Positions 1 through 43,058 of a stretch of DNA of 64,000 nt are shown in pieces (within the stretch, counting starts at the first letter, position 1; each line of letters opens with the position of its first letter). A program made the position numbers and the translations under genes. The notes below the pieces were generated by a model. The model did not search any database and was not told the DNA's origin. It saw nothing but the letters and a program-made list of their open reading frames with translations. The stretch lies in assembly GCA_038087875.1 (NCBI GenBank), contig CM075995.1, forward strand, positions 6,264,001-6,328,000. The letters run 5' to 3'. This stretch comes from Malacoraja senta (lineage: Eukaryota).

Positions 1-443
1 CAACTTCATCACCAATTTTCATCCTGCACTCAAATTTACTTCGACCATCTCCGATACCTCCCTCCCCTTTCTTGATCCCACAGTCTCCATTACAAGAAAC
101 AGACTATTGACTGACATCTGTTACAAACCCACTGACCCACAACTATCTCGACTAAACTTCTTCCCACCCTGCTTCCTGCAAAGACTCTATCCCCTACTCC
201 CAATTCCTCCGTTCTACCCCGCATCTGCGTCCAAGATGAGATGTTCCATACCAGAACATCCAAGATGCCCTCATTCTTTAGGAAACGGGGGTTCCCCTCT
301 CCCATCATAGATGAGGCCCTCACTCGTGTCTCCTCGGTACCTCGCAGCTCCGCCCTAGCTCCCCCTCTCCCCAGTCGTAACAAAGACAGAGTTCCCCTGG
401 TCCTTACCTTCCACCCCATCAGCCATCGCATGCAACACATAAT
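1..443 (+). mobile_element. Penelope-like element, RT C-terminal part (left half, split by CR1)
   Basis: Frameshifted KDSIPYSQFLR..RIC and RGFPSPIIDEAL..RVPLVLTFHP motifs typical of PLE RT. Continues at about 3617. Confidence 0.8.
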
Positions 444-3400
444 AGAAACATAGAAACATAGAAAATAGGTGCAGGAGTAGGCCATTCGGCCCTTCGATCC
501 TGCACCGCCATTCAATATGATCATGCCTGATCATCCAACTCAGTATCCCGTACCTGCCTTCGCTCCATACCCCCTGATCCCTTTAGCCACAAGGGCCATA
601 TCTAACTCCCTCTTAAATATAGCCAATGAACTGGCCTCAACTACCTTCTGTGGCAGAGAGTTCCAGAGATTCACCACTCTCTGTGTGAAAAAAGTTTTTC
701 TCATCTCGGTCCTAAAGGATTTCCCCTCTATCCTTAAGCTGGACTGGACTTCCCCAACATCGGGAACAATCTACCTGCATCTAACCTGTCCAACCCCTTG
801 AGAATTTTGTAAGTTTCTATACAATCCCCCCTCAATCTCCTAAATTCCAGCGAGTATAAGCCAAGTCTATCCAGTCTTCCTTCATATGAAAGTCCTGACA
901 TCCCAGGAATCAGTCTGGTGAACCTTCTCTGCACCCCCTCTATGGCTATAATGTCCTTCCTCAGATTTGGAGACCAAAACTGTACGCAATACTCCAGGTG
1001 TGGTCTCACCAAGACCTTGTACAACTGCAGTAGAACCTCCCTGCTCCTACACTCAAATCCTCTTGCTATGAAGGCCAACATACCATTCGCTTTCTTCACT
1101 GCCTGCTGCACCTGCATGCCCACTCTCAATGACTGGTGCACCATGACACGCAGGTCTCGCTGCATCTCCCCATTTCCTAATCGGCCACCATTTAGATAAT
1201 AGTCTGCCTTCCCGTTTTTTCCACCAAAGTGGACAACCTCACATTTATCCACATTATACTGCATCTGCCAAACATCTGCCCACTCACCCAGCCCATCCAA
1301 GTCACCCTGCAGTCTCCTACCATCCTCCTCACAGCTAACACTGCCCCCCAGCTTAGTGTCATCCGCAAACTTGGAGATGTTGCTTTCAATTCCCTCGTCC
1401 AGTTCAGAACCATTGTTTCTGAATTAACCATGTCACTCTCCATCCTAATGAAGAACTCAACCATATTATGGTCACTCTTGCCCAAGGGGCCACGTACAAC
1501 AAGACTGTTAACTAACCCTTCCTCATTACTCAATACCCAGTCTAGAATAGCCTGCTCTCTCGTTGGTTCCTCTACATGTTGGTTTAGAAAACTATCCCGC
1601 ATACATTCCAAGAAATCCTCTTCCTCAGCACCCCTGCCAATTTGATTCACCCAATCTATATGTAGATTGAAGTCACCCATTATAACTGTTTTACCTTTGT
1701 TGCACGCATTTCTAATTTCCTGTTTGATGCCATCCCCAACTTCACTACTACTGTTAGGTGGCCTGTACACAACACCCACTAGCGTTTTCTGCCCCTTAGT
1801 GTTTCGCAGCTCTACCCATATCGATTCCACATCCTCCAAGCTAATGTCCTTCCTTTCCATTGCGTTAATCTCCTCTCTAACCAGCAACGCTACCCCACCT
1901 CCTTTTCCTTTCTGTCTATCCCTCCTGAATATTGAATATCCCTGGATGTTCAGCTCCCAACCTTGGTCTCCCTGGAGCCATGTCTCCGTGATCCCAACTA
2001 TATCATAATCATTAATAGCTATCTGCACATTCAACTCATCTACCTTATTACGAATACTCCTTGCATTGAGACACAAGGCCTTCAGGCTTGTTTTTACAAC
2101 GCTCTTACCCCTTATACAATTTTGTTGAAAAGTGGCCCTGTTTGATTTTTGCCCTGGATTTGTCTGCCTGCCACTTTTACTTTTCACCTTGCTACCTATT
2201 GCTTTTACCCCCATTTTACACCCCCTCTGTCTCTCTGCTCACACATTTAAGAACCCCACCACCTCTTATTCCCTGTTTATTATTTTCTTCTTCCCCCCCT
2301 ACATGTTGGGTCTGAGTGCTTCCCTTCTCTGCCTCCTGCCTCACACACTGTCTACTAGCTTACTCTATTTGAGTCCCTCCCCCCAACCGTTCTAGTTTAA
2401 AGTCTCCTCAGTAGCCTTTGCAAATCTCCCCGCAAGGATATTGGTCCCCCTCGGGTTCAAGTGCAACCCATCCTTTTTGTACAGGTCGCACCTTCCACAA
2501 AAGAGGTCCCAATGATCCAGAAACTTGAATCCCTGCCTTCTGCACCAGTCCTTCAGCCACGCATTTATCCTCCACCTCGCTCCATTCCTACTCTCACTGT
2601 CGCGTGGTACAGGCAGTAATCCCGAGATTGTTACCTTTGCGGTCCTTCTTTTTAACTCTCCTCCTAACTCCCTAAATTCTCCTTTCAGGAGCTCTTCTCT
2701 TTTTCTACCTATGTCATTGGTACCTATATGTACCACGACCTCGGGCTCCTCTCCCTCCCATTTCAGGATATCTTGGACACGTTCAGACACATCCGAGACC
2801 CTGGCACCAGGGAGGCAAACTACCATCCGGGTCTCCCGACTGTGTCTCCAGAATCGCCGGTCTGACCGCCTAACTATAGAGTCCCCTATTACTAATGCCC
2901 TCCTCTTCTTTTCCTTACCCTTCTGAGCAACAGGACCGGTCCCTGTACCGGAGGCCCGGCCGCTGTTGCTACTCCCAGGTAGGCTGTCCCCCCCAACAGT
3001 ACTCAAACAGGAATACTTATTGTCAAGGTGTACAGCCACCGGGGTACTCTCTAGTCCCTGCCTGTGTCCCTTGCCCCTCCTAACCGTGACCCACTTGCCT
3101 GCCTCCTGTGGTCTTGGAGTGACCACCTCTCTAACTCCTCTCAATGACTTCCTCGCTCTCCCTGACCAGACGGAGGTCATCGAGCTGCTGCTCCAGGTTC
3201 CTAATACGGTCCCTTAGGAGCCCCATCTCGACGCACCTGGCGCAGATGTGGACGTCTGGAAGGCTATCAGATTCCTTGACCTCCCACATCTGACATCCAG
3301 AACAGTAAACTGCCCTGGCACTCATACTCCCCTCTTACCCTGGATACAATACAAAGTACAGTACAATACAATCAGCAAGGATCCAACTCCCAATCAGCTG

Positions 3401-4497: not shown

Positions 4498-4717
4498 GAG
4501 ATTAAAGTAGCTTTGACCACAACTTTGCCACATCCTCAAATACAGGAATGGGGCAGAAAACTTGAGGATTGCAACAAAGCAAAGAAAATTGGAAACCACA
4601 AGCCAGTGAGTTATAAACTCAAATTATGATTTTTTTTAAATTCCAGACCAACAAACAATCTGCTGGAGTAATTCAGTGGGTCGAACTACATCTGTAGGGG
4701 TTGTGGAGGGGGGAGGG

Positions 4718-5449
4718 TGATAAAGCTGAATTATGTTAAAAATATAAGAAAAGCTTACAGCTTATATTTAGTCTCAAATCAGGCTTTTCTCCAGTAGAAT
4801 AATACAGAAAGGCAAGTTAAGTTGCCTCGGGTTTTGGGGTATTGAGATAATAAATACCATAACATTGTCTCCCAAGTGAGGAAGTGACAGAGAAAGAAAC
4901 AGCTAGTCACATCTTTGAAGTAAGATGCCATAAAACAAATGGCCAATGTTTATGGGGGAGGAGGCGATAAAGGAAGAGAGAAACAGCTAGTCACATCTTT
5001 GAAGTAAGATGCCATGAACCAAATGGCCTATGTTTATGAGGAACCAAGTGACAGAGAGGAAGCAGCGAAAGAGCTAGGGTGATCTCTTTTAAGATAAAAT
5101 GACCTAAAACAAATGGCCAATGTTTTTAGTATATCTTGTACCATGTAAACAAAAGGCCTTTGATGTGATGCATTCTGTGGAAACCTTTTCCTGTACCTCT
5201 GACCATGACTAATGTTTGTGGAATGTGCTAAGGTGACAAAAAAACACTATATAAGACAATGTAATTCTGTTGTTCAGAGAAGGGGACCGAGGACAGTCGA
5301 GTGTCTACATTGGTCACTTAGCTGGAATTCTCGCTCCCTTCCATCGGCCGATGTTAAGTAAAGTTTTGAACTGGTCTACCAAACAGTTTGTGTGGTGTCT
5401 GTTTATTAAGAAGCGAACCTGTTTAGTTGTTATAAAAGTAACTTTTTCA
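4718..5449 (+). repeat. ERV 5' LTR (LTR1, 732 bp)
   Basis: TG...CA termini. U3 has about three imperfect direct repeats with CCAAT boxes, TATATAAG at 5248-5255, and an AGTAAA poly(A)-signal variant at 5357-5362 followed by a GT-rich tract. Nearly identical to 10137-10866. Confidence 0.95.
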
Positions 5450-5450
5450 T

Positions 5451-5468
5451 TGGCGTAGTTATGCAGGC
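5451..5468 (+). promoter_or_regulatory. Primer-binding site, tRNA-Ser-like (degenerate)
   Basis: TGGCGTAGTTATGCAGG 1 nt after the LTR CA; resembles the tRNA-Ser PBS TGGCGTAGTCGGCAGGA. Repeated at 10868-10885. Confidence 0.7.
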
Positions 5469-5990
5469 TTCGCTGGGACCACATCAACGGCTGACTGTGC
5501 AAGAGGTTGCAGAGGTTGCCGGGATTGGAAGGGAGATAACTGAGCTCTATAGGCCCCCTTGTAAGACCGACTCCCTAGAAACTCCCGGGAACGTCTGTGA
5601 TCCTTCATCAGAGGTTGATACAGGTTCCCTGCCGAGGTTCTTAGAAACAGACCAAGGTAAGACCAGTTGGGCTTTATAGGGTTTTTTTTTTTTAAGAAGG
5701 GATTGTGTATGTATTTTTAAGACAGAATTGTGCATGTATTTTTAAGGGCTTGTGTATATTGTTAAGAAGGACGTGAGTGGTTTCTCTTTCTCTCTCTCTC
5801 GGTCTATCTCTCTTTGTTTTCTTTTATTTTCTCTTCTCTCTTTCTCTCTACCAAGGGCTCATCGGCCTCGTTGAGATATCCGTGATTTGTCGGGTTGAGA
5901 TACGGGGGTTGAGGTGTGCGTCTGGCTTATTGAGATCCGAAGAGTTGTCGGATTGAGAAATAAGTGGCGTTGTATATTAAACAGTAAGAA

Positions 5991-6550
5991 GTCTGCCAGG
6001 TTGAGAAACGGGGGTCCCGGTTAGCGGGTCTGCTTCATTGAGACACCTGGGGCTTTTTTTTAGGTCTGCCAGGTTGAGAAACGGGGGTCCCGGTTAGCGG
6101 GTCTGCTTCGTTGACACCTGGGGCTTTTTTTTAGGTCTGCCAGGTTGAGAAACGGGGGTCCCGGTTAGCGGGTCTGCTTCGTTGAGACACCTGGGGCTTT
6201 TTTTAGGTCTGCCAGGTTGAGAAACGGGGGTCCCGGTTAGCGGGTCTGCTTCGTTGAGACACCTGGGGCTTTTTTTAGGTCTGCCAGGTTGAGAAACGGG
6301 GGTCCCGGTTAGCGGGTCTGCTTCGTTGAGACACCTGGGGCTTTTTTTAGGTCTGCCAGGTTGAGAAACGGGGGTCCCGGTTAGCGGGTCTGCTTCGTTG
6401 AGACACCTGGGGATTTTTTTAGGTCTGCCAGGTTGAGAAACGGGGGTCCCGGTTAGCGGGTCTGCTTCGTTGAGACACCTGGGGCTTTTTTTAGGTCTGC
6501 CAGGTTGAGAAACGGGGGTCTCGGTTAGCGAGTCGGCCTCGTTGAGACAC
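5991..6550 (+). repeat. About 72-bp tandem repeat array (about 8 units) in the ERV leader
   Basis: Unit gtctgccaggttgagaaacgggggtcccggttagcgggtctgcttcgttgagacacctggggctttttttag starts at 5991, 6064, 6135, 6207, 6279, 6351, 6423 and 6495. Degenerate units lie on both sides. Confidence 0.95.
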
Positions 6551-6700
6551 TTCGGTCGTATATCAAAGAGGTAAAAAAAAAAAAGTCAGCCAAATTGAGA
6601 AACTGGGGTCTCGAGTAGCAAGTCGGCCTGGTTGATATATTTGGAACGATTCGGAATTAAGAAGTCTGCTTTCTCTTTCTCTCTCTCTCTCTATCTATCT

Positions 6701-7318
6701 ATGGGGAATGCACTGGATAACAGTGAGGGGGGAACCCCCGTCCAACATATGTGTTATTTGAATCCTAAGTATAATAAGAAATTTAGAATGTTAAGTTACA
6801 AGTTGACCAAACGGTTGGGGGATGAAGCCGCGCCAGTAGGGGGCACATGGAATGTCGAGACAATTAAAAAAGCAGAGATGTTGATATGGGAAAGGAAGGC
6901 AGGAAAGAAATGGAAGAAGGGAATTAAAACGTGGAAAGCAGAAGCAGAGAAGAAGCATGAGGAGAGTAGAGATCGAAGTTGGATGGATACTGCATGTAAA
7001 CAAGGGATAGAGTTACGAAATAAGGATGGCACTATGAAAGGATGGAAAGTATTGCAACTAGAATGCCAGTGGGCGGAGGAACAAGAGAAAATAATTAAGA
7101 GACAGGCAGGAGGTGAGAAACAGGTGATGGTTAGTAAAAATAAACCCAGTACTGGTAAATCCTCTGGAGGAGACTTCATGTCTGGCACGATGACCATGTT
7201 TGGTAGTGAAGATGAGGAGTTAGATAATCTTGGGAGATGTCCAGTAGCCCTACGTCCTACCAGTAGCAATGGCATCCTTACCTGTGGCAGCTCCGTCAGT
7301 AATATCCCTATACCTTGA
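6701..7318 (+). pseudogene. gag: ERV gag N-terminal fragment (matrix-like), truncated by internal deletion
   Basis: MGNALDNS.. start (possible myristoylation Gly2) just after the leader, with a basic, Trp-rich N-terminus. No capsid, nucleocapsid, protease or RT follows. Confidence 0.6.
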
Positions 7319-7360
7319 AGTTCTGACCTTACAAAGCTCCCCAGATTTGGGAGCACGGGA

Positions 7361-8251
7361 ATGCCCCTTTCTGTGCATAATTTGCTTAAAGCATTGATGC
7401 TACCAGAACAGCTGGCCATTATTAAATGTGCTACACACACTGGTGCTGGGGACCCTATAACAAAAGGCAATGCATTTGCCGATAGTGTATCCAAGCAAGC
7501 AGCCTATGCATACAAATGCTTAGTGACAGCAGGTAAACAGATGCTAACAAATAGAACGGTCCTGCCAAACATGAGGGAGGTATGTACATTACAGAGGGAC
7601 GCCTCGTATATAAAAACAACTATGGAAACAAGAGGGCTGTGCCATTGATTCGGCTCACCCCGCTTGGACAAGTTGGTGTATACGATGCATTTTTCCCCGT
7701 CTGACTAACATATATTCATTCTCTTACCCATGCTGGTAAGGAGGGAATGATAAGGATGACAAAGGAAACGTGGTGGCACCTGAAAATTTGGCAAGAGGCA
7801 CTGAAGCAGGCCTCTGAATGTAAAATTTGCCAACGAAGTAATCCAGGCAAACCAATTAAGATACCCTCAGGGGTGACGCCAATGCCATCACGACCGTTTG
7901 AATGCATAGATTGATTTTATTGAAATGCCAAGGGCCCAGTGTTATAAATATTGCTTAGTGATTTTAGATTTATTTAGCAGGTGGATTGAAGCTCTACCAA
8001 CCACTAATAATACTGCTGAGACTACAGTAACATTGGTGTTAAGGGAAGTTATTCCCAGGTTTGGCCTACCTACTGTCATAAGCTCGGACAATGGTCCCCA
8101 TTTTATTGCCACTATTAATAAGGAAATATGTACACATTTTTATATCCGACAGCAATTTCACTGTGTACACCACCCACAGGCATCTGGGATGGTGGAAAGA
8201 GCCTATGGGGCATTGCAAAACAAAATTACCCCGGAGGAATCCTTTTTCTGA
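7361..8251 (+). pseudogene. pol: ERV pol 3' part: RNase H C-terminus and integrase (frameshifted)
   Basis: LAIIKCATH..KGNAFAD (RNase H end), HSLTHAG...CKIC zinc finger, and YCLVILDLFSRWIEA, SDNGPHF, HPQASGMVER integrase core. Gamma/epsilon-like. A WIHLTDC-like integrase tail remnant lies near 9826-9846. Confidence 0.88.
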
Positions 8252-9298
8252 CAAGCAACTATGTTATAAAAAAATTGGGGATGAAGACAAATTCGGTGGA
8301 GAAATGAGGATAGGATAGGGAGACTGAAAAGTCACGGGGAGTCTGACTAATCATGATCTGGATCAAAGTCCAATTAGGGTTAGGTAACCAGGATTCTGGT
8401 AAACAGAAGTCTTGTCAGAAAAAGGGAACGTAAATTACAAAGAGACGTCTTTGAAGATGAAATATTATATACTGCTGGTAAAACAATTTTTTTTGTGTAT
8501 GTACTGCTTGTAAAACAATGTTTTTTGTATGTGGAATGTGTGAAATTTGAAGCAATGAGCAAAGGTATGAGTCCCTTTAAGAACAGTTTGTCCTTTAAAA
8601 TGCAAATGAACAGGCAGGTTATGGTGTGTTCCTTTAAGACACTGCCATGAATGGGGGGCTGAGCTATACTCAAATGATAAAATGTGTTGGTTGTTATAAA
8701 TCGTTTGAGCCGAGTTCAAAAAGAGACTCATCCCAATTAAAGTGTTAAATGAGATTGGAAATGTCAACATTAGAGAGAAAAAGAAAATGTATTATTGATT
8801 ACTGATTCTGAGTGAGTTCTTTTGGGAAAGATTGTTTTGATGTGATAATAGAGGTTGTCCTTTAAAATGCAAATGAAGCAAGATTACGCTCTGCAGACGA
8901 ACAAAGGTGTTGAAGCATGTGCTGTGTAAGGGAAATGAATGTACATGTAAAATTGTCTTATGGCTTACAAAAGGGGGTTTGAGGGAACTCATAATGAGGG
9001 ATAAAAGGTGAGAAGATAAGTAGATTGGGGAAGAGAACATATTTGGAGAATTTAATATTTAGGTGGGGAGAGCCTCTTCAGATATAATCGGATTAAAGAA
9101 TAAGTTCACAGAGAAGTGCTTAAGAAGGAACTGCAGATGCTGGAAAATCAAAGGTAGACAAAAGTGTTGGAGAAACTCAGGGGATGAGGCAGCATCTATG
9201 GAGCGAAGGAAATAGGCATCATTTCGGGCCGAAGCCCTTCTTCAGAGTAGATTGGGATTATTCAACTGCAGCTAGAGAAACAGGATTTACAACTTGTT

Positions 9299-9514
9299 AA
9301 AGAAGGAACTGCAGATGCTGGAAAATCGAGGGTACACAAAAATGCTGGAGAAACTCAGCGGGTGCAGCAGCATCTATGGAGCGAAGGAAATAGGTAACGT
9401 TTCGGGCCGAAACCCTTCTTCAGACTCAGGGTTTCGGCCCGAAACGTTACCTATTTCCTTCGCTCCATAGATGCTGCTGCACCCGCTGAGTTTCTCCAGC
9501 ATTTTTGTGTACCT
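9299..9514. mobile_element. Penelope-terminus-derived foldback insertion with 17-bp TSD
   Basis: Perfect 86-bp inverted repeat (9331-9416 / 9428-9513), flanked by AGGATTTACAACTTGTT at 9282-9298 and 9515-9531. A second Penelope tail fragment lies at about 9121-9245. Confidence 0.85.
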
Positions 9515-10136
9515 AGGATTTACAACTTGTTTTATTGATTCAGGAAAGGCTGCTGTGCCCACCCCCTGGAGAGTGGGGGGGAAGCCACCTACATGCCCTG
9601 GGCAATTAGCTAATTATGTATGGACAGCAATTAACCCATGTCTTGCCAGATCTGCATTCCCAGGTTAGAGGAGCTGTGCTGAAAACCAGTGAGCACAGGG
9701 ACGAGCCCAAAAAGGCTACAAAATGACTATGTGGTGGGACAGAAAGAAATTGAGATTGTGTTGAAAGGATCAACAAAGTGCCACCAACAACATAAATTGC
9801 TGTGAAGATTGAAGATCATCGTCGTTGGATACATTTGATTGACTGTGAACAGTTTGTGGAAACAAGAAAGGACAATGGGCTATTGACCCTCCTTTTATTC
9901 TGGGGTGGCCCACATGGACTGGACTTTCTTCAGAATGGCAAACTTGCAGACTAACCCACATTTAAAGGATGGTACACACATCCTTTTAAACAAGATTGGA
10001 GTCAAACATGACAAGTGCAGCAAAGATACCCTGGCTACAGACAGTGAGATAATTTGCCTGATGAGATGCATATGGTCTTTCGTATGTACTCGGCAAGGAC
10101 TGTAGTTATTATCAAGATTTTGATAAAAGGATGGAA

Positions 10137-10866
10137 TGATAAAGCTGAATTATGTTAAAAATATAAGAAAAGCTTACAGCTTATATTTAGTCTCAAATCA
10201 GGCTTTTCTCCAGTAGAATAATACAGAAAGGCGTTAAGTTACCTCGGGTTTTGGGGTATTGAGATAATAAATACCATAACATTGTCTCCCAAGTGAGGAA
10301 GTGACAGAGAAAGAAAAAGCTAGTCACATCTTTGAAGTTAGATGCCATAAAACAAATGGCCAATGTTTATGGGGGAGGAGGCAATAAAGGAAGAGAGAAA
10401 CAGCTAGTCACATCTTTGAAGTAAGATGCCATGAACCAAATGGCCTATGTTTATGAGGAACCAAGTGACAGAGAGGAAGCAGCGAAAGAGCTAGGGTGAT
10501 CTCTTTTAAGATAAAATGACCTAAAACAAATGGCCAATGTTTTTAGTATATCTTGTACCATGTAAACAAAAGGCCTTTGATGTGATGCATTCTGTGGAAA
10601 CCTTTTCCTGTACCTCTGACCATGACTAATGTTTGTGGAATGTGCTAAGGTGACAAAAAAACACTATATAAGACAATGTAATTCTGTTGTTCAGAGAAGG
10701 GGACCGAGGACAGTCGAGTGTCTACATTGGTCACTTAGCTGGAATTCTCGCTCCCTTCCATCGGCCGATGTTAAGTAAAGTTTTGAACTGGTCTACCAAA
10801 CAGTTTGTGTGGTGTCTGTTTATTAAGAAGCGAACCTGTTTAGTTGTTATAAAAGTAACTTTTTCA
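10137..10866 (+). repeat. ERV LTR2 (730 bp), preceded by PPT and followed by PBS plus about 50 nt of leader
   Basis: Purine tract AAAAGGATGGAA at 10125-10136. Only a handful of differences from LTR1. 10867-10936 repeats 5450-5519. Confidence 0.95.
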
Positions 10867-10936
10867 TTGGCGTAGTTATGCAGGCCTCGCTGGGACCACA
10901 TCAACGGCTGACTGTGCAAGAGGTTGCAGAGGTTGC

Positions 10937-13900
10937 TTTATCTAAGGCACTTTTGGAGATGGAGATGTAATGTAAACTTAAAAATTTGGAATGACCACCC
11001 AACGTCCAGAACACGGAGGTATTTGTTTGCACCATATGTTTCAAGAACATCACTTTGATATACAATGCAGGACGATAGGCAAATAAAGAATGGAGGAATC
11101 ACATTCTGTAGTTGGAATATAAGGGGTGCCAATGAACCAATAAAGAGGGGTAAAATTTTTGCTCACCTAAAATCTTTGAAAAGCGACATAATCTACTTGC
11201 AAGAAACTCACATGAAACAGGAAACACAAATGAGATTAAAGGCGAAGTGGATAGGCCAAACATATTATTCGTCATTTACTTCTAAATCTAGAGGTACGGC
11301 TATTCTTATTCGAAAAGGTATACCGTTCAAATTAAAGAATACTATATCAGATAAAGAGGGAAGGTATATTATAGTTTCGGGAGAAATTTATGCTACCCCA
11401 ATAACTATGGTAAATATTTACGCTCCGAATTTTGATAACCCTCAATTTTTTGAGAAAATTATAGATATAATACTGGAGTTTAATTATCAAAATGTCATAA
11501 TAGGAGGGGATTTCAACTGTGTTTTAGATCCTTAGACAAATCAGCAAAACAAAGAAGGAGTAATACAAAATCTAAGACCAGTGAATTTCTAAATACATAT
11601 ATAAAAAATACTAACATAACAGATGTATGGAGATCTGCTAACCCAGCAGGAAGGGAATACTCGTTTTACTCTTCGGTACATAAAACATACTCAAGAATTG
11701 ATTATTTTTTAGTGGATAGGAAATTAATGCCATATATAATTAACCGAACTTACCATATTAGTAGTATTTCTGATCACTCTCCATTGACTTTTTTAGTAAA
11801 ATTTGAAGGAATGCCGGGAAAGAATTTTTTTTGGAGGTTTAACACATATATATTAAATGACTTACAGGGTTATCAATATTTGAAACAACAAATGATATCA
11901 TTTTTTGAGATAAATGATACACCAGGTACCTCACCTTCTTTAATATGGGAAACTTTTAAAGCATTTATTAGAGGAATTATAATTTCATATGAAATTTTTC
12001 AAAATAAGAAGAATAAGACAGAACAGATGCTGTTAGAACAAGAAATAAGACAGTTAGAGTTAGATAATGCTAAAGATCCCACTATAGATAAACATAATAA
12101 GATAATACTACTGAAATTTAAACTTAACCGAATTCTCTCGGCAAGAGTAATAAGATTATTCCAAATTACAAAACAGGAACATTTTGAGTTTGGTGACAAA
12201 CCACATAAGCTGTTGGCGCGTCAATTGAAAAAACAGGAAAAGGAAAATACTATAAATAAAATTAAATCCGAGAATGGTGAATTACTAACACTACCTAAAG
12301 ATATCAATAAAAGATTTGTTCAATTTTATCAGAATTTATACACATCAAAAACCAAAACAGAAGATAGTAAAATTACAAATTTTTTAGATAAATGTAATCT
12401 ACCAAAACTTGATCTTTTGGAACAAGAAGAACTAGGAGCGCAAATTACAATCGAAGAAATAGGTGAAACAATAAAATTGCTGAAAAATGGTAAGACACCG
12501 GGACCAGATGGTTTTAGTAATGAATTTTATAAAAAGTTTCATGAGATAACGACCCCCTATCTATTTAATTTATATACTTACGTTTTTAAAGAAAATAAAT
12601 TACCTGAAACATTAGCAGAATCAACTATTACGCTTATTGCAAAGAAAGATAAAGATCTAGAGGAACCGGACTCATATAGAGCTATATCACTTTTAAATAC
12701 CGACCAGAAAATTCTAGCAAAGACTTTAGCTAGAAGACTAAGCAAATATATTAGTAAATTGATAAACCCTGATGAAACGGGGTTTATACCCAAAAGATAT
12801 TCATTTAATAATTTGAGACGCCTGTTTAATATAATGTACTCGCATAAAAAGGAAGAAAAAGACTTAGCAATTATTTCTTTGGACGCAGAGAAAGCATTTG
12901 ATCAGGTAGAATGGCAGTATTTATACATAGTATTACAAAAATTTAATATGGGAGAGAATTTTATTGCATGGGTGAAATTATTATATGATAAACCGATGGC
13001 AAGAATATTAACTAACAGCATGTTATCTCAAAAATTTCAATTATCAAGGGGTAATAGGCAGGGATGTGCTTTATCACCCCTGCTATTTGCCCTTATGATA
13101 GAACCTCTGGCTGAAAGTATAAGAAGCCATCCGAATATTCAGGGTTATAATACTAGGGACTCAAATAATAAAATTTCATTGTATGCAGACGATATTTTGT
13201 TATATATAACAAATTCACAAACGAGCATACCAAATTTATTAAATTTAATAGAGGAATTTGGGTCCTTTTCAGGATATAGAATAAACTGGAACAAAAGTGA
13301 AATTATGACGTTAAAACCTCAAGAATCCACACACTTATTGAAATTCCCCTTTAAAATAGCAACAGAAAAATTCAAATATCTGGGTATACAGATTACTAGA
13401 AAACATAAAGCTTTATTCAATGCTAATTTTATACCCTTAATAAATAAACTTAATATAATGATAAAATTTTGGAAAACACTCCCTTTATCATTAATAGGCA
13501 GAATAAATGCTATTAAAATGAGCTTCTTACCACAGTTATTATACCTATTTCAATCTATACCAGTATATGTACCAAAATATTTTTTTTCTAAACTGAACGC
13601 TAATATTACTAATTTTGTTTGGGATTACAAATCACATAGAATTAAAAAAGAACACTTATGTAAACCAAAAGATGTCGGGGGACTTTCACTCCCTAATTTT
13701 TTGTATTACTATTGGGCAATACATATTAAGAATATAATTTACTGGTTGGATAGTTCAACTCAACAGACAGAATGGATAAAAATGGAGAAAGAGGATTGTT
13801 ATCCTTGTAATATAGGAACAATCCTCTTCTCCCCGAAAAAAATGAACAATACAATATATAAGAAAAACCCAATTATACAAGATACAATAAGAATATGGAA

Positions 13901-15177
13901 ACAAATAAAACTATCCTTAAAATTAAGAAACCTATCATTGTTAACACCGATAGCGAATAATCCTTTATTTAAACCATCTATGATGGATAAAATATATAAT
14001 CAATGGGAAAGTTTAGGAATTAAAAGGATCGGGGATATGTATGAAATGGGAGATTTATTATCATTTCAACAATTACAATTAAAATTTAAACTGAAAAACA
14101 CTCATTATTTTAAATATTTTCAGATTTGTAATTTTTTGAAGACATACATACAGGGATATCAAAAAATAACTCCTGATTTAATAGAAGAAGTAATGAATAT
14201 AAAAGCTGATACACAAAAATTAATAGCATATTTATATAATAGTATCTTAAATATAGATTTACCTGTGACCGAGGTAATTAGAGAAGAGTGGGAACGGGAA
14301 TTATTGATAAAAATTACGAAGGCTACATGGGAAAAGTATTTGACATACATTCACAAGTGTTCGATTAACGCAAGACATAATCTAATCCAATTTAAAATTT
14401 TACATAGATTATATTACTCAAAAACAAGATTAAATAAATGTTATCCAAATATATCGCCCATTTGCGATAAATGTTTAACCCAAGAAGCAACTATAACACA
14501 CTCTTTTGTTTCTTGTATAAAACTTCATGGATTTTGGAGTGATATTTTCAAAATATTTACAAAACTATTTATGACAAAAATGGAACCCAATAATGAATTG
14601 ATTATATTTGGGGTAATGGAAGACGGGAACAAATTGAGTTCATCTCAAAAGTCAATTTTTAATTATGGTTTAATAATAGCAAAAAAATTAATATTGAAAT
14701 TTTGGAAAAATACACCAATACCAACGCTCAAAATGTGGATTGCAAGTATGTTGGATACCGCACATCTTGAGGAAATGCGATTCCTCCTAATAGATAAATT
14801 TGACCAATTCATAACGAGTTGGTCTCCATTTGTCGTCTTTTTGGAAACGTATGGTGCAAAACAGGTGTAAAAGCTAATCCGTGACTGCGGATGGTCAAGA
14901 TTATAAATGATCTTCTATTTTCTTTTCTTCTCATCTTTTCTTTTATTCTCTCTTTTCTATTTTCTATGTCTCAACTTTCTTATTTCATTCTTTATTTTTC
15001 TTTTTCACACACTATATATCTCACATTTTTCTATTTTTCATTATCTAACTTTTTTCTTTTTCTTCTTTATTTCAAAAAATTTAAAAAATAAGAAGCTGTA
15101 CATGAAAGGTATTATGAAAATATGATTGTATATAATTGTACCTACTTCTAATAAAAAAAAAAAAAGAAAAAAAAAAA
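10937..15177 (+). mobile_element. L1-clade LINE lacking ORF1; full-length ORF2 (EN-RT-Cys) with one frameshift; poly(A) tail
   Basis: SWNIRG, YLQETH and GGDFN endonuclease motifs (11065-11535), frameshift at about 11532, then RIDYF, SDH, SLDAEKAFD, RQGCALSPLLF, LYADD and CDKC..H...C (to 14870). T-rich 3'UTR, AATAAA and A-tail at 15150-15177. Confidence 0.93.
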
Positions 15178-15350
15178 GAGAAGGGGACCGAGGACAGTCG
15201 AGTGTCTACATTGGTCACTTAGCTGGAATTCTCGCTGCCTTCCATCGGCCGATGTTAAGTAAAGTTTTGAACTGGTCTACCAAACAGTTTGTGTGGTGTC
15301 TGTTTATTAAGAAGCGAACCTGTTTAGTTGTTATAAAAGTAACTTTTTCA
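15178..15350 (+). repeat. Partial third LTR (R-U5 only)
   Basis: Matches LTR1 5277-5449 (about 1 mismatch seen), ends in CA, followed by the TSD AGGG. Confidence 0.93.
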
Positions 15351-16292
15351 AGGGGGGAGATGGTCATCATTTCAGGTCAAATTCCCGCATCAAAAACTCT
15401 AGAGACTACTGTCAGGGACAAAATTACATGGTTGAAAGAAACAACCAGTTTTGTTAAGGTAAATTACATTTAGCTAACATGACTGAGCTGTATAATTAAA
15501 TATAAGAGCACTGGTGCGGGTAGTGGCGGTCTTTGAAAAGCCATTTGATAAAATAGCACATAATTTGGATGATAGAATCTCATCTCTACATAATTCTTCA
15601 AATTCACAGGGAGAATCAACAAGCAAACATCAGTGTCTTCGCCCTGGGCAAAATCACTCGCACAGAGGCTCTAGTCACTCAATCAGCCACACTGAGCAGG
15701 CCACATTATTCGCAGACTCGGTAACCAATACACACATTACGAGTTGTCAGAGGAACAGATTGCCAGGAGACAGAGGAAAAGATTCAAGATATTTTGATGG
15801 TACAACAGTCTTACTGATTCCTTGAAACCTCTTGTGGGGCATTCAGAATAATTCATGGCTCAAACAAAGACAGAAGCCTTTATTAGCAGAAACAAACCAC
15901 CCCCAAACTCCCTGTCAGACACCTCTTTCCCCAGTAGTGGAGGTTATTATATTAGTTTTATCAGCCACCCAGAATCAACAAATCTGGAGAGGATGCAAGT
16001 GTGTCTTCAATCTCGAGGATCTGGTCAGAAGAACGTGACAATATTGCACAAGCTGCTCAAATTTAACCATGCAAAAATGTTACCTTGTGATAGAATTTTC
16101 CAAATTCTCAAAGAGGAAGAAAATGTATTTCTCTCAATTACGAGTATGCTTGTGTCAGATTTCGCTTCACTTTCCATTTTTAGAACCGACACATCAAAAT
16201 GTTGATTGCTACCAACAAGGCCATCCATTCAAACACAGGAATTGTAGAATAAGACAGGAAACCTCATATTCTACTCATTTGCCACCAATTCA

Positions 16293-19260
16293 CATAGAAA
16301 CATAGAAGATAGGTGCAGGAGGAGGCCATTCGACCATTTGAACCAGCACCGCCATTCATTGTGATCATGGCTGATCGTCCCCAATCAATAACCCGTGCCT
16401 GCTTTCTCCCCATATCCCTTGATTCCACTAGCCCCTAGAGCTCTATCTAACTCTCTCTTAAATCCATCCAGTGATTTGGCCTCCACTGCCCTCCGTGGCA
16501 GGGAATTCCACAAATTCACAACTCTCTGGGTGATAATGTTTTTTCTCATTTCAGTCTTAAATGGCCTCCCCTTTATTCTCAGACTATGGCCCCTGGTTCT
16601 GGACTCGCCCAACATTGGGAACATTTTTCCTGTATCTAGCTTGTCCAGTCCTTTTATAATTTTATATGTTTCTATAAGATCCCCCTCATCCTTCTAAACT
16701 CCAGTGAATACAAGCCCAGTCTTTTCAATCTTTCCTCATATGACAGTCCCACCATCCCAGGGATCAATATTGTGAACCTACGCTGCACTGTCTCAATCAC
16801 AAGGATGTCCTTCCTCAAATTAGGAGACCAAAACTGTATGCAATACTGCAGATGTGGTCTTACCAGAGCCCTATACAACTGCAGGAGAACCCGTCTACTC
16901 CTATACTGAAATCCTCTTGTTATGAAGGCCAACATTCCATTAGCTTTCTTCACTGCCTGCTGAACCTGCACGTCAACTTTCAATGACCGGTGTACAAGGA
17001 CACCCAGGTCTCACTGTACCTCCCCCTTACTTAACCTAACCCCATTGAGATAATAATCTGCCCCCTTGTTTTTGCCACCAAAGTGGATAATCTCACATTT
17101 ATCTATATTATACTGCATCTGCCACGCATCTGCCCACCCAATCAACCTGTCAGGTCACCCTGCAACCTCCTAACATCCTCTTCACAGTTCAAACTGACAC
17201 CCAGCTTTGTGTCATCCGCAAACTTGCTAGTGTTGCTCCTAATTCCCTCTTCCAAATCATTAATATATATGGTAAACAGTTACGGCCCCAACACCGAGCC
17301 TTGCGGCACTACACTCACCACTGCCTGCCATTCTGAAAAGGACCCGTTCACTCCTACTCTTTGGTTCCTGTCTGCCAACCAATTTTCTATCCACGTCAGC
17401 GACAATACCATGTGTTCCAATTTTAGTCACCGGTCTACCGTGCGGGACCTTATCAAAGATTTTCTGAAAGTCTAGATACACTACATCCACTGGCTCCCCT
17501 TCATCCATTTTACTTGTCGCATCCTAAAAAAATTCCAGAAGATTAGTCAAGCATGATTTTCCATTCATAAATCAATGCCGACTTGGACTAATCCTTTTAC
17601 TGCTATCCAAATCCTTTTACTGCTATCCTTTTAGTGCTATCCAACTGCCCCATTATTACCTCTTTAATAATTGACTCCAGCATCTTTCCCACCACCGAAG
17701 TCAGGCTAACTAGTCTGTAATTCCCCGTTTTCTCTCTCGCTCCTTTCTTGAAAAGTGGGATAACATTAAAGGCCTGTCTCACGAGTCTGCGGTCATTGGC
17801 GGTGATACAGGAAGTATCTACCGCTCGTGGACTGCCAGAGACCGCGGGTTCGGTCAAACGACCACCGCCGGGGCCGTGCGGCGTTTGTCCCAACACCGCA
17901 CGGTGCTAAAAAAAAGTCAGCACTGCCCAAAAATAATTTCTTACCGCAAAGCCGCCGCCAGTGAGGCACGAGTGCAGCACGGTCACTGCCACAGCTGCCG
18001 CCAGTGAGGCACGAGCGCCGTGAGTCGAACTCTCACCGCCACAGCCACCGCCAGTGAGGCACGTGTGCGGCACGGCCGCCGCCACAGCCGCCATCAGTGA
18101 GGCAGGTGTGCGGCACGGCCGCCGCCACAGCCTCACGATCCGAAAGACGTCATCGCGTAGCGCGTCGCGCGATAACGTCATCGCGTAGCGCGTCGCGTTG
18201 CGCGATGACGTAATCACCCAATGCCGCAAGCTCGTGGAACCGGCCGTACGGAGATCACTCGGCCCCCGCGCAGCATGCGTGCGGCGCTCTCGCGGTTGAC
18301 GTGCGGTCCCCTCTACCGGCGACGCCGCGCTTCACCGCCAATGACCGCAACACCGTGAGATAGAGCCTTTAGCTATCCTCCAATCCACAGGAACTGATCC
18401 TGAATCTATTGAGCATTGGAAAATGATCACCAATGCGTCCACTATTTCTAGAGCCACCTCCCTGAGGACCCTGGGATGCAGTCCATCAGGCCCCTGGGAT
18501 TTATCATCCTTCAGTCCCATTAGCCTACCCAATACTATTTCTCGCCTAATGAAAATTTCTTTCAGTTCCTCAACCCCCTTAGATCCTCTGTCCTCCAGTA
18601 CTTCTGGGAGATTGTTTGTGTCTTCCTTAGTGAAGACAGATCCGAAGTACCTGTTCAACTCTTCTGCCATTTTCTTGTTCCCCATAATAATTTCACCCGT
18701 GTCTGCCTTCCAGGGACCCACATTTGACTTTGCTACTCTTTTTCCCTTAACATATCTAAAGAAGCTTTTACTGTCCTTCTTTATATTCCTGGCCAGCTTC
18801 CCTTCGTACTTCATCTTTTCAGCCCGTATTGCCCGTTTTGTTTCCTTCTGTTGTCCTATGAAAGTTTCCCAATCCTCTGGCTTCCGGCTACTCTTTGCTG
18901 TGTTATACATCTTTTCTTTTAGTTTTATTCTATCCCTAAATTCTCTCGTCAGCCACGGTTGCCTCCTACTCCCCTTAGAATATTTCTTCCTTGTTGGAAT
19001 GAAATGATCCTGTGTCTTCCGGATTATGCCCAGAAATTCCTGCCATTGCTGTTCCACCATCATTCCTGCTAGTATCCCTTTCCAGTCTACCTTGGCCAGC
19101 TCCTCTCTCATGCCTTCATAATCCCCTTTGTTCAGCTGCATCAATGCCACTTCCGATTTAACCTTCTCCTTCTCAAATTGCAGATTAAAACTAATCATAT
19201 TATGATCACTACCTCCAAGCGGTTCCTTTACCTCGAGTTCTGTAATCAAATTTGATTCAT
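16293..19260 (-). mobile_element. CR1 LINE, 5'-truncated ORF2, interrupted by a MITE
   Basis: Tail at about 16293. RT motifs VDVVYLDFQK.FDKVPH, NYRLVSLTSVVGK and PGPDGLHPRVL-like in broken ORFs 16385-19249. Confidence 0.9.
17769..18369. mobile_element. GC-rich MITE (non-autonomous DNA transposon), copy 1
   Basis: TIRs AAGGCCTGTCTCACG / CGTGAGATAGAGCCTT. It splits the CR1 sequence at a duplicated TA and has internal GC-rich tandem repeats. Confidence 0.85.
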
Positions 19261-23208: not shown

Positions 23209-26200
23209 TAAAAATTATAGGTTATAGGTTCATAATTAAAAATAGTAGTAAAATGGATTTTCCAACATACTTTGTAAAAAATGACAATTCAATTATTGAA
23301 AATACAGAGGACATTGCTAATGAGTTGAATGATTTCTTTGTTAATGTAGGCCCAAATTTGGCAAAGGAAATTAACCTTCCTAGAGATGAAAACATAAATT
23401 TTGATTTGAACTTAACAACAGCAATTCAATGTTCCTTGTTGGAGCTTGTGAGAGTGACATGTTAGAAGTAGTCAGAAAGTTTAAGGATTAAAAAATCAAC
23501 TGATGGTAACACCATTGATATGTCACTTATAAATGAAGTAATTGATTGTGTCCTCGAGCCCTTTACCTATATATGCAATAAATCCTTTCTAAAAGGTGTT
23601 TTTCCCAATAAAATGAAAATGGCTAAGGTGGTTCCAATGTATATAAATGGTGACAAACATATTGTATCAAATTATAGACCTGTGTCTTTGCTACCTCAAT
23701 TTTCTAAAATACTTGAAAAGCTATTTGTGAATAGACTTGATGACTTCATTGAGAAATATGAGTTATTGAGTGATCATCAATATGGGTTTAGGAGTAATCG
23801 ATCGACATCTTTAGCGTTGATGGATTTTGTAGAAAATATAGCAACAGCAATAGATAAGAAACTACACACTGTGGGTGTATTTATTGATTTACGTAAAGCA
23901 TTTGATACAATTGATCATTCCTTACTTTTGCAGAAATTGGAACGTTATGGTATAAGAAGTGTCACACAAAATTGGTTGGGAAGTTATTTAAGTAATAGGT
24001 TTCAGTATGTAAAAATTAATAATACTGAATCACAGCTTAGAAGAGTAACCTGTAGTGTTCCACAAGGTTCGTGTTCCACAAGTAATTTATACTTTATTTA
24101 AATGATATTTGTAAAGTATCCAAGACGATGAAGTTTGTTACGTTTGCGGATGATACAAATGTATTTTGTTCAGGGAATGATATAAAAGAACTATTGAAAA
24201 CAGCAGAAAGAGAATTGATAGTGCTAAAAAAATGGTTTGATATTAATAAATTATCCCTAAATGAAAATAAAACAAAATTTATGGTGTTTGGTGGTGACAG
24301 GGTTAATTGTGAAATAAAATTGAATTTAAATGGAGTTGAAATTGAAAGAGTATATCAAACAATATTCCTGGGAGTGATTATAGATCATAAACTTTGTTGG
24401 AAGCCACATATAGAATACATCAAACGGAAATTATCTAAATCCATTGCTATTCTTTACAAAACAAAGGATCTGTTGAATAAGAAGTGTTTGTATATATTGT
24501 ATTGCTCGCTTATAATGCCATATATGTCATATTGTGTTGAAGTTTGGGGAAATGTATATAAAACAAATATAGACCCTATAATTAAACTCCAGAAAATAGC
24601 TATTAGAATAATACATAAAGGTTCAGAGGGAGGAGCTACACCCGAGCGGTAGGAGTTAAAGTGGAGCGCGGGGCTTGCTTCTTACAGAGGCCCGAGAGCC
24701 GTTGGAGCGGTCGCAGAGGGAGGAACAAAAGTTCCAAGTTCCACTCGCACTTCAAAAACAAGTGGGCTTAAGGAAGCCGCTGATTGGTGGAAGCAGACAA
24801 GAGGGAGCAGCTGATTGGGAGTCAGATCCCTGCTGATTGTACTGTATTGTAGCAGTTTGTTTTGTATTGTAGCAGTTTGTTTTGTATTGTATCCTAGGTA
24901 AGGGGAGTATGAGGGCCAGGGCAGTTTACTGTTCTGGATGTCAGATGTGGGAAGTCATGGAGTCTGATAGCCCTCCAGACGTCCACATCTGCGCCAGGTG
25001 TATCGAGATGGGGCTCCTAAGGGACCGTATTAGGAACCTGGAGCAGCAGCTCGATGACCTCCGTCTGGTCAGGGAGAGCGAGGAAGTCATTGAGAGTTAC
25101 AGGGAGGTGGTCACTCCAATACCACAGGAGGCAGGCAAGTGGGTCACGGTTGGGAGAGGCAAGGGGCACAGGCAGGGACTAGAGAGTACCCCTGTTTGAG
25201 CACTGTTGGGGGGGACAGCCTACCTGGGGGTAGCAACAGCGGCCGGGCCTCCGGTACAGAGACTGGTCCTGTTGCTCAGAAGGGTAAGGAAAAGAAGAGG
25301 AGGGCAATACTAATAGGGGACTCTATAGTTAGGGGGTCAGACAGGCGATTCTGTGGACGCAGTCGGGAGACCTGGATGGTAGTTTGCCTCCCTGGTGCCA
25401 GGGTCTGTGATGTGTCTCAACGTGTCCAAGATATCCTGAAAGGGGAGAGGAGCCCGAGGTCGTGGTACATATAGGTACCAATGACATAGGTAAAAAAAGA
25501 GAAGAGGTCCTGAAAGGAGAATTTAGGGAGTTAGGAGGGGAGTTAAAAAGAAGGACAGCAAAGGTAACAATCTCGGGATTAATGCCTGTGCCACGCGACA
25601 GTGAGAGTAGGAATGGAGCGAGGTGGAGGATAAATGCGTGGCTGAAGGACTGGTGCAGAGGGCAGGGATTCAAATTTCTGGATCATTGGGACCTCTTTTG
25701 TGGAAGGTGCGACCTGTACAAAAAGGATGGGTTGCACTTGAACCTGAGGGGGACCGATATCCTGGCGGGGAGATCTGCAAAGGCTACTGGGGAGACTTTA
25801 AACTAGAATGGTTGGGGGAGGGACTCAAATAGAGAAAGCTATTAGACAGTGTGTGAGGCAGAAGGCAGAGAAGGAAAGCACTCAGACCCAACATGTAGTG
25901 GGGAAAGAAGAAAACAATAATAAACAGAGAATAAGGGGTGGTGGGGTTCTTAAATGGGTGAGCAGAGAAACAGAGGGGTGTAAAATGCGGGCGGAAGCAA
26001 TAGGTAGCAAGGTGAAAAGTAAAAGTGGCAGGCAGACAAATCCAGGGCAAAAATCAAAAAGGGCCACTTTTCAACATAATTGTATAAGGGGTAAGAGCGT
26101 TGTAAAAACAAGCCTGAAGGCTTTGTGTCTCAATGCAAGGAGCATTCGTAATAAGGTGGATGAGTTGAACGTGCAGATAGCTATTATTGATTATGATATA

Positions 26201-42870: not shown

Positions 42871-43058
42871 AAAATTTAAGGAGATGATTTTAACTTTATG
42901 AATTCATTCTGAATGAATTCATTCTAAATGAATTCATTTATGAATTTTAAAGTTTTAAGAATTAATTTTCACTCCTTAAAAAAACATTAAAATATTTCAA
43001 AGCTCCACTTATTTTTTTTACTGACAGTGAATTTCTCCAATTTTGATATGACCATCGT

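Follow-up and report, generated by a model that had tools for sequence, protein, structure and literature searches.

Retroviruses reportedly take up host RNA, with capture or oncogene transduction said to be described by Hajjar and Linial in 1993, Swain and Coffin in 1992, and Dunn et al. in 1992. Aberrant strong-stop transfers and LTR-associated cell inserts have been described in unintegrated avian retroviral DNA, and Ty1 has been reported to be joined to oligo(A) close to where R begins. LTR-mediated retroposition is exemplified by 15 Drosophila cases that, in the account of Tan et al. (2016; PMC5131818), carry no poly(A) tails and have internal ORFs partly replaced. HIV-1 is described as packaging fragments of LINE RNA, and packaged host RNAs are described as recombination templates (PMC4997597). 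In yeast, according to PMC7175516, Ty1 makes DNA copies of a cellular RNA that it packages (Y' RNA), and these come to lie in the genome. Work on human cells (PMC11702581) describes 9 cases in which two RNAs gave rise to an L1 insertion and 3 in which nearby DNA served as template for part of it.

Here, we describe a block in Malacoraja senta, contained in an analyzed window of 64,000 nucleotides, in which an L1 with its A-tail is embedded in sequence of an endogenous retrovirus (ERV). The L1 tail meets the R region of an LTR within 1 nt of the transcription start mapped for the ERV family in a related species, and we lean toward an origin of this joint in retroviral strong-stop DNA.

Anatomy of the block

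From left to right, the block consists of a 4-bp target-site duplication (TSD), LTR1, an internal part, LTR2, a PBS-leader piece of 70 nt, a 5'-truncated L1 with its A-tail, R-U5, and the TSD again, as follows.

4714..4717, + strand: left TSD of the whole block, AGGG
4718..5449, + strand: LTR1 (U3 4718-5275, R about 5276-5383, U5 5384-5449)
5450..10136, + strand: PBS (5451-5468), leader, and internal part of a non-autonomous ERV
10137..10866, + strand: LTR2, with R starting at 10693
10867..10936, + strand: second copy of the PBS and the first 70 nt past the LTR, equal to 5450-5519 with one substitution
10937..15152, + strand: L1-clade LINE, 5'-truncated, with a frameshifted ORF2 and Exo_endo_phos, RVT_1, and zf-RVT domains
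15153..15177, + strand: A-tail, A13-G-A11, its final A common to the tail and the first base of R
15177..15350, + strand: R-U5 piece ending in an intact LTR end and starting no more than 1 nt from the mapped cap site
15351..15354, + strand: right TSD, AGGG; the flank beyond is single-copy in the assembly

This order and these coordinates bear out a preliminary description of the sequence, which had also recognized that one integrase-type TSD encloses the entire block. Both integrase ends are intact (TG start at 4718, CA end at 15350), and the L1 cargo is bordered on either side by sequence of one LTR element. The ERV family makes TSDs of 4 bp in 14/14 copies, proviruses or solo LTRs, whose two ends could be read, from a count of 30 loci, 7 of which were unreadable. 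The flanks to the left and right are the two halves of one old repeat, as evidenced by comparisons in which L184 beat 200/200 shuffles and L185 beat 188/200, with L183 and L186 being uninformative. Neither a second haplotype nor an empty site of these flanks was found in the assembly.

The provirus has LTRs, a PBS, a polypurine tract ahead of LTR2, remnants of RNase H and then integrase, and the 4-bp TSD; given its motifs and TSD length, we take it to be a putative class I (gamma/epsilon-like) element. Its internal region is about 3.7 kb shorter than in longer relatives, and the RT region is absent. LTR1 has a TATA box at 5248 and a poly(A)-signal-like hexamer at 5357-5362, and it continues into plain leader and internal region without an L1. 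A comparison of LTR2 with LTR1 shows four substitutions and one gap of 2 bp; all five differences are in U3 and within 4814-4966, with none in 4967-5449, and four of the five are changes on LTR2 alone. The middle R-U5, that of LTR2, is the same as LTR1's, while the right R-U5 piece is one base different. Private changes present in 0/70 other loci set the three LTR pieces of the block apart. Gene conversion of the LTR2 U3 from a sampled relative was rejected, since its four private alleles occur in 0/70 loci. By eye, the first 100 of 271 places of the family included 36 two-LTR copies and 25 single LTRs on chromosome-scale contigs, and no other triple-LTR copy there; tandem arrays are present on contigs C29, C3882, and C3692. 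No tRNA genes were found in the window, nor were genomic retrocopies of ERV RNA with terminal poly(A), which were sought to map R/U5 from DNA. The R-U5-leader has a folding z score of -2.8, which has no bearing on the question of origin.

The LINE is, on its sequence features, a member of the L1 clade: it has an APE-type endonuclease, an RT, a C-terminal zinc motif, and an A-tail, its full-length relatives are about 6 kb long, and their TSDs vary. Compared with full-length 6.2-kb relatives, this copy misses about 2.0 kb of the 5' end (5' UTR and ORF1 region). The ORF2 span is all present, in two frames, 11059-11535 (endonuclease) and 11484-14870 (RT), which are split by a short deletion near 11530 that is absent from 29/29 relatives. 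The ORF2 first reported as complete is, therefore, complete only in its span, and the accompanying suggestion that a retrovirus transduced a LINE ORF2 carries no functional weight, as the frame is broken.

The cap site and the two joints

The ends of the ERV transcript were read from adapter and poly(A) loose ends of raw RNA reads from a related species, whose copies are mostly 90-95% alike. The family cap site falls at 5275-5276, as evidenced by a template-switch adapter directly ahead of 5275 in at least 51 reads (run X23), and the poly(A) site falls at 5380-5383, with poly(A) directly after 5383 in at least 280 and at least 247 reads (X23 and X24, respectively). No peaks of read starts or ends were seen among the matches listed for the related-species reads. 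With the cap at 5275-5276 and the poly(A) site at 5380-5383, 15177-15350 corresponds to R-U5 to within 1 nt. The preliminary description had predicted a transcription start at 5276-5277 and had equated the final LTR piece with the extent of minus-strand strong-stop DNA; both claims agree with the related-species cap to within 1 nt.

The LTR piece at 15177-15350 equals 5276-5449 over 174 nt with one substitution. Because base 15177 is common to the A-tail and the LTR, the joint placed earlier at 5277 and here at 5276 is the same, and its distance of 28-29 nt past the start of the TATA box is confirmed. Given the related-species cap at 5275-5276, the L1 tail thus meets the LTR no more than 1 nt from the cap, the end of strong-stop DNA. 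Homology at this joint is 1 nt only. Among 271 exact R starts, the one at 15177 is the sole one without U3 sequence directly upstream, and none of the other 270 is joined to an ordinary mRNA. The A-tail is purer than the tails of 51/51 relatives, and the T-broken pattern found in 47/51 of them is absent from it.

The leader joint lies 52 nt beyond the PBS, where the viral RNA still intact would come closest to the site of priming. Microhomology between the ERV leader and the L1 upstream of 10937, a question raised at the outset, amounts to 4 nt (10933-10936), and the same 4 nt stand upstream of the break in 29/29 L1 relatives. Microhomology of 4 nt also occurs at the ordinary 5' ends of 4/21 truncated relatives. 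A family-trained target matrix gave no support for an L1 nick site at one TSD length from the leader joint (50th percentile). Each joint is single-copy in the assembly, with no second or re-mobilized copy, so a search for further poly(A)-R-U5 joints and copies of the chimera, as the preliminary description had proposed, found none there; no donor provirus with an L1 in its leader was found in the assembly either.

As noted before, the L1 lacks a TSD of its own, unlike most of its relatives. A canonical L1 TPRT event would be expected to leave a flanking TSD of about 9-18 bp; a clean TSD is present in 35/46 relatives examined and missing from about 6/46 (a script missed 9, but inspection by eye showed that 3 of these do have a TSD, short or plain). 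At 3/35 relatives the duplication is long, with 37, 77, and 105 bp, the last being the longest TSD seen. The nearest repeat in the block is the 174-bp R-U5, separated from the L1 by the 70 nt of PBS-leader. The tail-joint target, TTC/AGAG, had been considered weak; it is instead typical of this L1 family, which has Y/AGA in 8/35 sites. In the family-trained target matrix, it ranks 239 of 10824 positions and receives 0.09% of L1 insertions into one LTR-plus-internal unit; when only sense insertions into an LTR are considered, its share is 1.1%. Dating the L1 against the provirus by private changes gave no difference, at low power (13 in 4214 versus 7 in 1778 branch-bases, p = 0.63); equal loads are what one event would give.

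Routes to the block

On balance, we favor a reading in which ERV strong-stop DNA was extended on L1 poly(A) RNA, synthesis went back to viral RNA, and a deletion between direct repeats removed the left-end L1. Synthesis primed by tRNA would copy U5-R up to the cap, and the strong-stop DNA, with a 3' end that is all pyrimidine and finishes in T, would be extended on the A-tail and 4.2 kb of L1; the L1 tail would sit on R-U5 at the cap because this DNA likely jumped to L1 poly(A) and not to the viral 3' R. Copying would then proceed into leader-PBS-U5-R. Here, a 4-nt microhomology switch from a free L1 mRNA onto viral RNA is suggested only tentatively, and a template in which an earlier, ordinary L1 insertion had already produced an LTR-driven leader-L1 chimera is rather doubtful. 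Likewise tentative is the stronger claim that the block is a germline fossil of an event inside an ERV particle, in which the retroviral first strand was transferred, at the cap nucleotide, to the poly(A) tail of a free LINE mRNA. A second, normal jump would carry R to the 3' R of viral RNA, with U3 and the internal region being copied. The left-end L1 would be deleted between 244-bp direct repeats, in reverse transcription or after integration, or else plus-strand transfer would use the inner PBS, and integrase acting in trans would insert the block and make the 4-bp TSD. The preliminary description held that the internal PBS must have been used, as LTR1 is without the L1; this can be softened, since the 244-bp-repeat deletion gives the same product. 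According to the data given in PMC3187697, deletion between direct repeats of 110-250 bp has a frequency of 16-41% in each cycle, similarly in RNA- and DNA-dependent synthesis, and nonhomologous recombination is at least 1000-fold rarer than homologous recombination.

The strong-stop reading predicts the cap-site joint, to which the target matrix gives L1 so small a share of sense LTR insertions. The position of the leader joint near the priming site, the single 4-bp TSD like those of 14/14 relatives, the missing L1-type TSD, the equal private-change loads, and the scarcity of tandem precursors among the places inspected are also consistent with it. The rates of direct-repeat deletion and the packaging of LINE RNA fragments by HIV-1, with packaged host RNAs acting in recombination (PMC4997597), speak for it too. 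Nevertheless, TTC/AGAG is a typical target of this L1 family, and L1's own insertion mechanism therefore stays a live rival; because the initiator and the L1 target both have a pyrimidine-purine step, the coincidence at the cap site is less than random. Also against the strong-stop reading are the 1 nt of homology at the tail joint, a cap site taken from another species with copies mostly 90-95% alike, the lack of a donor in the assembly, and a leader joint unenriched for a nick site at TSD distance. Since no ordinary mRNA is found at the other 270 R starts, the free-mRNA route must account for the sole cargo being an L1. Normal plus-strand transfer would leave the insert in both LTRs, and because LTR1 has none, the strong-stop reading pays one extra step. 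The confinement of U3 differences to 4814-4966 mildly fits a later recopying of the 3' part of LTR2 from LTR1 (p about 0.03-0.09, by hand and post hoc, from the family variability profile). L1 TPRT at the U3/R boundary of a resident provirus's 3' LTR, with templated duplication of R-U5 and PBS-leader, strikes us as unlikely. A truncated cDNA would pair over 4 nt either with viral RNA or with the leader that follows LTR1, copy leader-PBS-U5-R, and re-anneal to LTR2, with the cap-site position being chance aided by a common sequence preference. This would yield the exact structure, an untouched LTR1, and one TSD from a single event on one ordinary provirus, and it accounts for the L1 identity of the cargo. 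The tail joint is a top-2% target, the 4-nt microhomology and the long duplications have counterparts among the relatives, and two-RNA and templated L1 insertions are described from human cells (PMC11702581); a middle R-U5 equal to LTR1's, a right piece one base off, and U3 differences clustered upstream of 4967 fit too. However, it requires a 1-in-90 LTR site plus rare templated repair, the right R-U5 of an older provirus, if it changed as fast as the 5' U3 patch, should carry about 3 changes where 1 is observed, and four of five U3 changes on LTR2 alone look more like a local patch than old divergence. Moreover, the L1 gives no measurable sign of a younger age than that of the provirus, and its tail is without the T-broken pattern of 47/51 relatives.

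It is improbable that an L1 entered a tandem LTR-internal-LTR-internal-LTR provirus, whether it removed the 5.2 kb that separate the second leader from R of the third LTR or duplicated 244 bp, with R-U5 copies recombining afterwards. Tandem arrays of the family exist, the target is typical, microhomology is present, and about 6/46 relatives likewise have no TSD, but the first 100 of 271 places showed no further tandem. For the deletion form, two coincidences would be required, the cap site (0.09% of the unit) and an end within the first 70 of 4687 internal bases, while 105 bp, the longest TSD seen in L1 relatives, tells against the duplication form. Quite improbably, the RT of L1, which shows a cis preference, might have been primed by strong-stop DNA, endonuclease-free, on its own RNA and passed on to the viral leader, the product being finished retrovirally or recombined into LTR2. 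The cap-site joint, the L1 cargo, and the L1-type 5' truncation with microhomology would be explained together, but strong-stop DNA normally stays inside the viral core, a literature search found no precedent, and the copying enzyme cannot be told from sequence. There is very little chance that an assembly artifact fused the L1 and LTR pieces: repeats lie on every side, with neither a second haplotype nor independent reads across the joints, yet the three LTR pieces carry distinguishing private changes (0/70 other loci), the 4-bp TSD fits the family, the flanks continue one old repeat, and overlaps of 1 and 4 nt at the joints are too little for an assembler. With an L1-typical target, a 4-nt overlap that is common at ordinary 5' ends of the family, no second copy or donor in the assembly, and a broken ORF2, the strong-stop jump onto L1 poly(A) put forward in the preliminary description, which gained from the cap site and the microhomology, is the best reading but unproven.

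Meaning and comparison with known systems

The block is a single dead copy, a mechanistic record without functional interest; it is limited to one copy with a frameshifted ORF2, no ORF1, a non-autonomous provirus, and no sign of spread. If the strong-stop reading is true, it would be a natural, base-resolved record of strong-stop DNA landing on host poly(A), which is known mainly from cell culture and yeast. It would also add a tailed class to LTR-mediated retroposition, described as without poly(A), and a LINE cargo would bear on how LINEs pass between hosts. The free-mRNA reading, if true, would mean that a single round suffices for retroviruses to acquire L1 ORF2 RNAs almost in full and integrate them, and would provide a concrete route for LINEs in viral particles, between hosts included. 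An A-tail fused to R at the cap nucleotide would be a simple signature to look for in any genome.

A literature search, in which older virology was thinly covered, brought up no description of a LINE fused to an ERV at its cap site. If the preferred reading holds, the block is best read as a variant of LTR-mediated retroposition. Like the cases described by Tan et al. (PMC5131818), it has a foreign RNA copy amid LTR-element sequence, two joints, microhomology at one of them (the 5' joint, with 4 nt, as against 1 nt at the tail), and integrase-type ends. Unlike the cases as described there, it has a LINE cargo with an A-tail, a 3' joint that overlaps by 1 nt and sits at the cap site, and an additional R-U5-PBS-leader. 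Among the L1 hallmarks expected to be absent from an LTR-mediated retrocopy, the A-tail and the family target are present and the L1 TSD is absent. Some LTR-mediated retrocopies, but not all, have been re-mobilized into further copies, of which the assembly shows none for the block. Retroviral host-RNA capture and oncogene transduction share with the block a nonhomologous switch between viral and co-packaged host RNA; the products treated in PMC4997597 are from cell culture and tumors, whereas the block is a germline copy with a read-mapped start site. Ty1 retrosequences are alike in that an LTR element copies packaged cellular RNA into the genome, but those described in PMC7175516 are from yeast and induced systems, have non-LINE cargo, and are mostly placed by recombination. 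Finally, noncanonical L1 insertions, which include two-RNA chimeras, templated insertions, and target-site deletions, resemble the block in the endonuclease-type tail site, the 5' truncation with microhomology, the templated 5' extra, and the lack of a normal TSD; as characterized in PMC11702581, they predict neither a tail joint at an LTR cap site nor PBS-leader as the templated piece.

Structure of the block and its cap site

The block is a genuine and unusual structure present as a single dead copy, in which a provirus, a second PBS-leader, an L1, and a further LTR piece share one pair of AGGG repeats.

Features of the block (window coordinates)
Directly before 4718, forward: left TSD, AGGG
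4718-5449: LTR1
5450-10136: PBS, leader, and internal region
10137-10866: LTR2
10867-10936: PBS and leader, second copy
10937-15152: L1
15153-15177: A-tail, A13-G-A11
15177-15350: R-U5 piece
Directly after 15350: right TSD, AGGG

The R-U5 piece is 174 nt long and departs from LTR1 5276-5449 by a single substitution; its first A is also the last A of the L1 tail. The two PBS-leader copies differ by one base. Between LTR1 and LTR2 there are four substitutions and a 2-bp gap, all inside 4814-4966. These five differences fall within 150 bp of U3 (10233-10383 in LTR2). Their clustering upstream of 4967 (p of about 0.03-0.09, calculated by hand with a family singleton share of 48% there) slightly favors recopying from LTR1, but four of them are private to LTR2 and the right R-U5 carries one change only. 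The patch could reflect local mutation, gene conversion by a copy outside the sample, or recopying of the remainder from LTR1.

LTR1 plus leader served as the target for aligning three raw RNA runs and a contig set at 88% likeness. In run X23, judged from its coded label and read likeness (mostly 90-95%) to come from a related species, 51 reads carry the template-switch adapter immediately 5' of 5275 (a match listed for X23 only), and no G-run suggesting strand invasion lies upstream in the window. Among the matches listed, poly(A) follows 5383 in 280 reads from X23 and 247 from a second run, X24, and follows 5380 in 56 and 43 reads, respectively. R therefore spans approximately 5276-5383, and the right-hand piece matches R-U5, the stretch covered by strong-stop DNA, to within 1 nt. 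The preliminary description, which had predicted transcription initiation at 5276-5277 and equated the piece with strong-stop DNA, agrees within 1 nt with these related-species reads. Sense reads in the related species are dense over R (5276-5383) and carry the cap adapter or poly(A), a hint of very short, R-only LTR transcripts.

The provirus, the L1, and their families

The provirus, which we take to be a class I ERV from its motifs and TSD length, retains RNase H and integrase remnants. Its internal region lacks about 3.7 kb found in longer relatives, and the provirus is therefore nonautonomous. The family comprises 840 candidates in the genome, with 271 exact R starts. Of 30 loci inspected for TSDs, 7 were unreadable; the 14 copies that could be read at both ends, 9 proviruses and 5 solo LTRs, all have a TSD of 4 bp. 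The leader at 5977-6624 holds at least seven 72-bp tandem repeats with cores 96-100% alike, more than in most relatives, and 9117-9514 contains short SINE- or LINE-tail-like insertions, two back to back, part of which are missing from the relatives compared. Two longer relatives (L149 and L165) have a PBS variant in which a T run replaces the usual middle, and L175:249-6704 shows the reverse nesting, an older L1 hit by a provirus of this family.

Among the first 100 of the 271 listed places, on large contigs, there are 36 two-LTR copies and 25 single LTRs, and the window block is the sole triple-LTR copy. Head-to-tail arrays of the family occur on unplaced contigs C29, C3882, and C3692 (loci L176-L180); they consist of nonautonomous proviruses with a 4723-bp period and at least five LTRs on C29, and they are a macrosatellite-like expansion. 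A tandem precursor for the block is possible but uncommon.

The L1 belongs to a young and large family (1477 and 3144 candidates at first look, the best copies being 97-99% alike), whose full-length members of about 6.2 kb start 2.0 kb upstream of its break. Pfam places an endonuclease in 11059-11535 and, in a different frame, a reverse transcriptase with a weak zinc motif in 11484-14870. ORF2, previously described as complete, is split by a short deletion near 11530 that is present in 0 of 29 relatives. The tail is also atypical: 47 of 51 relatives have a T-broken tail and none of the 51 has at least 12 straight A's after the signal, whereas 15153-15177 is pure A with one G. Other LINE-like copies lie in both orientations at 1-3400, 16300-19000, 24900-29000, 43000-46400, and 57000-60500, some pairs being 93-96% alike.

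Target preference was derived from 46 L1 copies, 31 of 40 fetched (9 were excluded as duplicates or because no tail was found) and 15 of 29 from a second set. A script found 37 TSDs, of which 2 composed of A/T only were discarded, leaving 35; 3 of its 9 misses have a TSD by eye. Lengths are mostly 9-18 bp, with outliers of 37 (L042), 77 (L101:427-503), and 105 bp (L109:385-489). The nick context is pyrimidine/A-purine-A, and Y/AGA, at 8 of 35 sites, is the most frequent class; TTC/AGAG, once considered a weak target, is therefore a normal one for this family. In a matrix from the 35 sites, it ranks 239 of 10824 positions in one LTR-plus-internal unit and carries 0.09% of the weight of that unit and 1.1% of the sense-strand weight of the LTR.

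Origin of the block

The tail joint (A-tail/R-U5, 15177) is unique: only 1 of the 271 exact R starts, that of the block, is not preceded by the U3 base, and a looser poly(A)-R search returned the same single place. The assembly contains no second leader joint (PBS-leader/L1, 10936/10937) and no poly(A)-leader joint, the mark of a donor. The chimera did not spread, and the further polyA-R-U5 junctions or chimera copies that the preliminary description proposed to look for are absent assembly-wide.

We lean toward a retroviral jump, with the tail joint formed on strong-stop DNA. Such DNA would have been extended on the L1 tail, placing the joint at the cap site; copying would have returned to viral RNA just past the PBS, and integrase insertion would have left one TSD. 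This route predicts the cap-site position and explains both the return behind the PBS and the single integrase TSD. According to PMC4997597, HIV-1 particles contain LINE fragments, and host RNAs that are packaged act as templates for recombination. The left-end L1 would have to be lost through direct-repeat deletion or recombination after integration; PMC3187697 gives 16-41% deletion per cycle for direct repeats of 110-250 bp, during DNA-dependent synthesis too. Weak points are the 1-nt overlap at the tail joint, the rarity of nonhomologous switches, and ordinary mRNA cargo at 0 of the other 270 R starts. Priming on strong-stop DNA by the L1's own enzyme is improbable.

Chromosomal L1 insertion after a nick at the cap site is a credible but less probable origin; this standing belongs jointly to variants in which LTR1 or viral RNA was the template for the PBS-leader and variants in which a deletion in a tandem exposed it. 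L1 insertions built from two RNAs or with locally templated sequence are on record (PMC11702581), but this origin requires a rare repair in addition to a 1-in-90 to 1-in-1100 site. At the leader joint, the microhomology sought between the leader and L1 sequence upstream of 10937 does exist: the four bases ending the leader copy also lie directly upstream of the break in 29 of 29 relatives. They fit a retroviral template switch but also ordinary L1 truncation: of 21 truncated relatives that have a TSD, 4 overlap it by at least 4 nt. Private changes in the L1 amount to 11 substitutions and 2 deletions across 4214 bases (the source's own changes included), and those in the LTR and leader pieces to 7 events in 1778 branch-bases (p = 0.63), similar loads that would be compatible with one event, with little power.

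The right flank is single copy, and it continues an old repeat at the end of the left flank in 2 of 4 relatives tested (shuffles as good, 0 of 200 for L184 and 12 of 200 for L185). None of 70 other loci carries any of the six alleles in the three LTR pieces. Judged from sequence, mis-assembly seems unlikely, and we give an assembly artifact very little credence. By rough weighing, complex L1 insertions are perhaps 10- to 30-fold commoner a priori and the cap-site match favors the retroviral jump about 50-fold; our ordering of these origins follows from the two.

Relation to known systems

Cell-derived inserts associated with LTRs and oligo(A) joints of Ty1 have been described before. The literature searched, in which older virology is thinly covered, yielded no account of a LINE fused to an ERV at its cap site. 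Ty1 is reported to copy packaged cellular RNAs (PMC7175516). The block works like retroviral host-RNA capture and like LTR-mediated retroposition; unlike the latter, by the marks set out in PMC5131818, it carries a poly(A) tail, lies at an L1-type site, and has not been remobilized.
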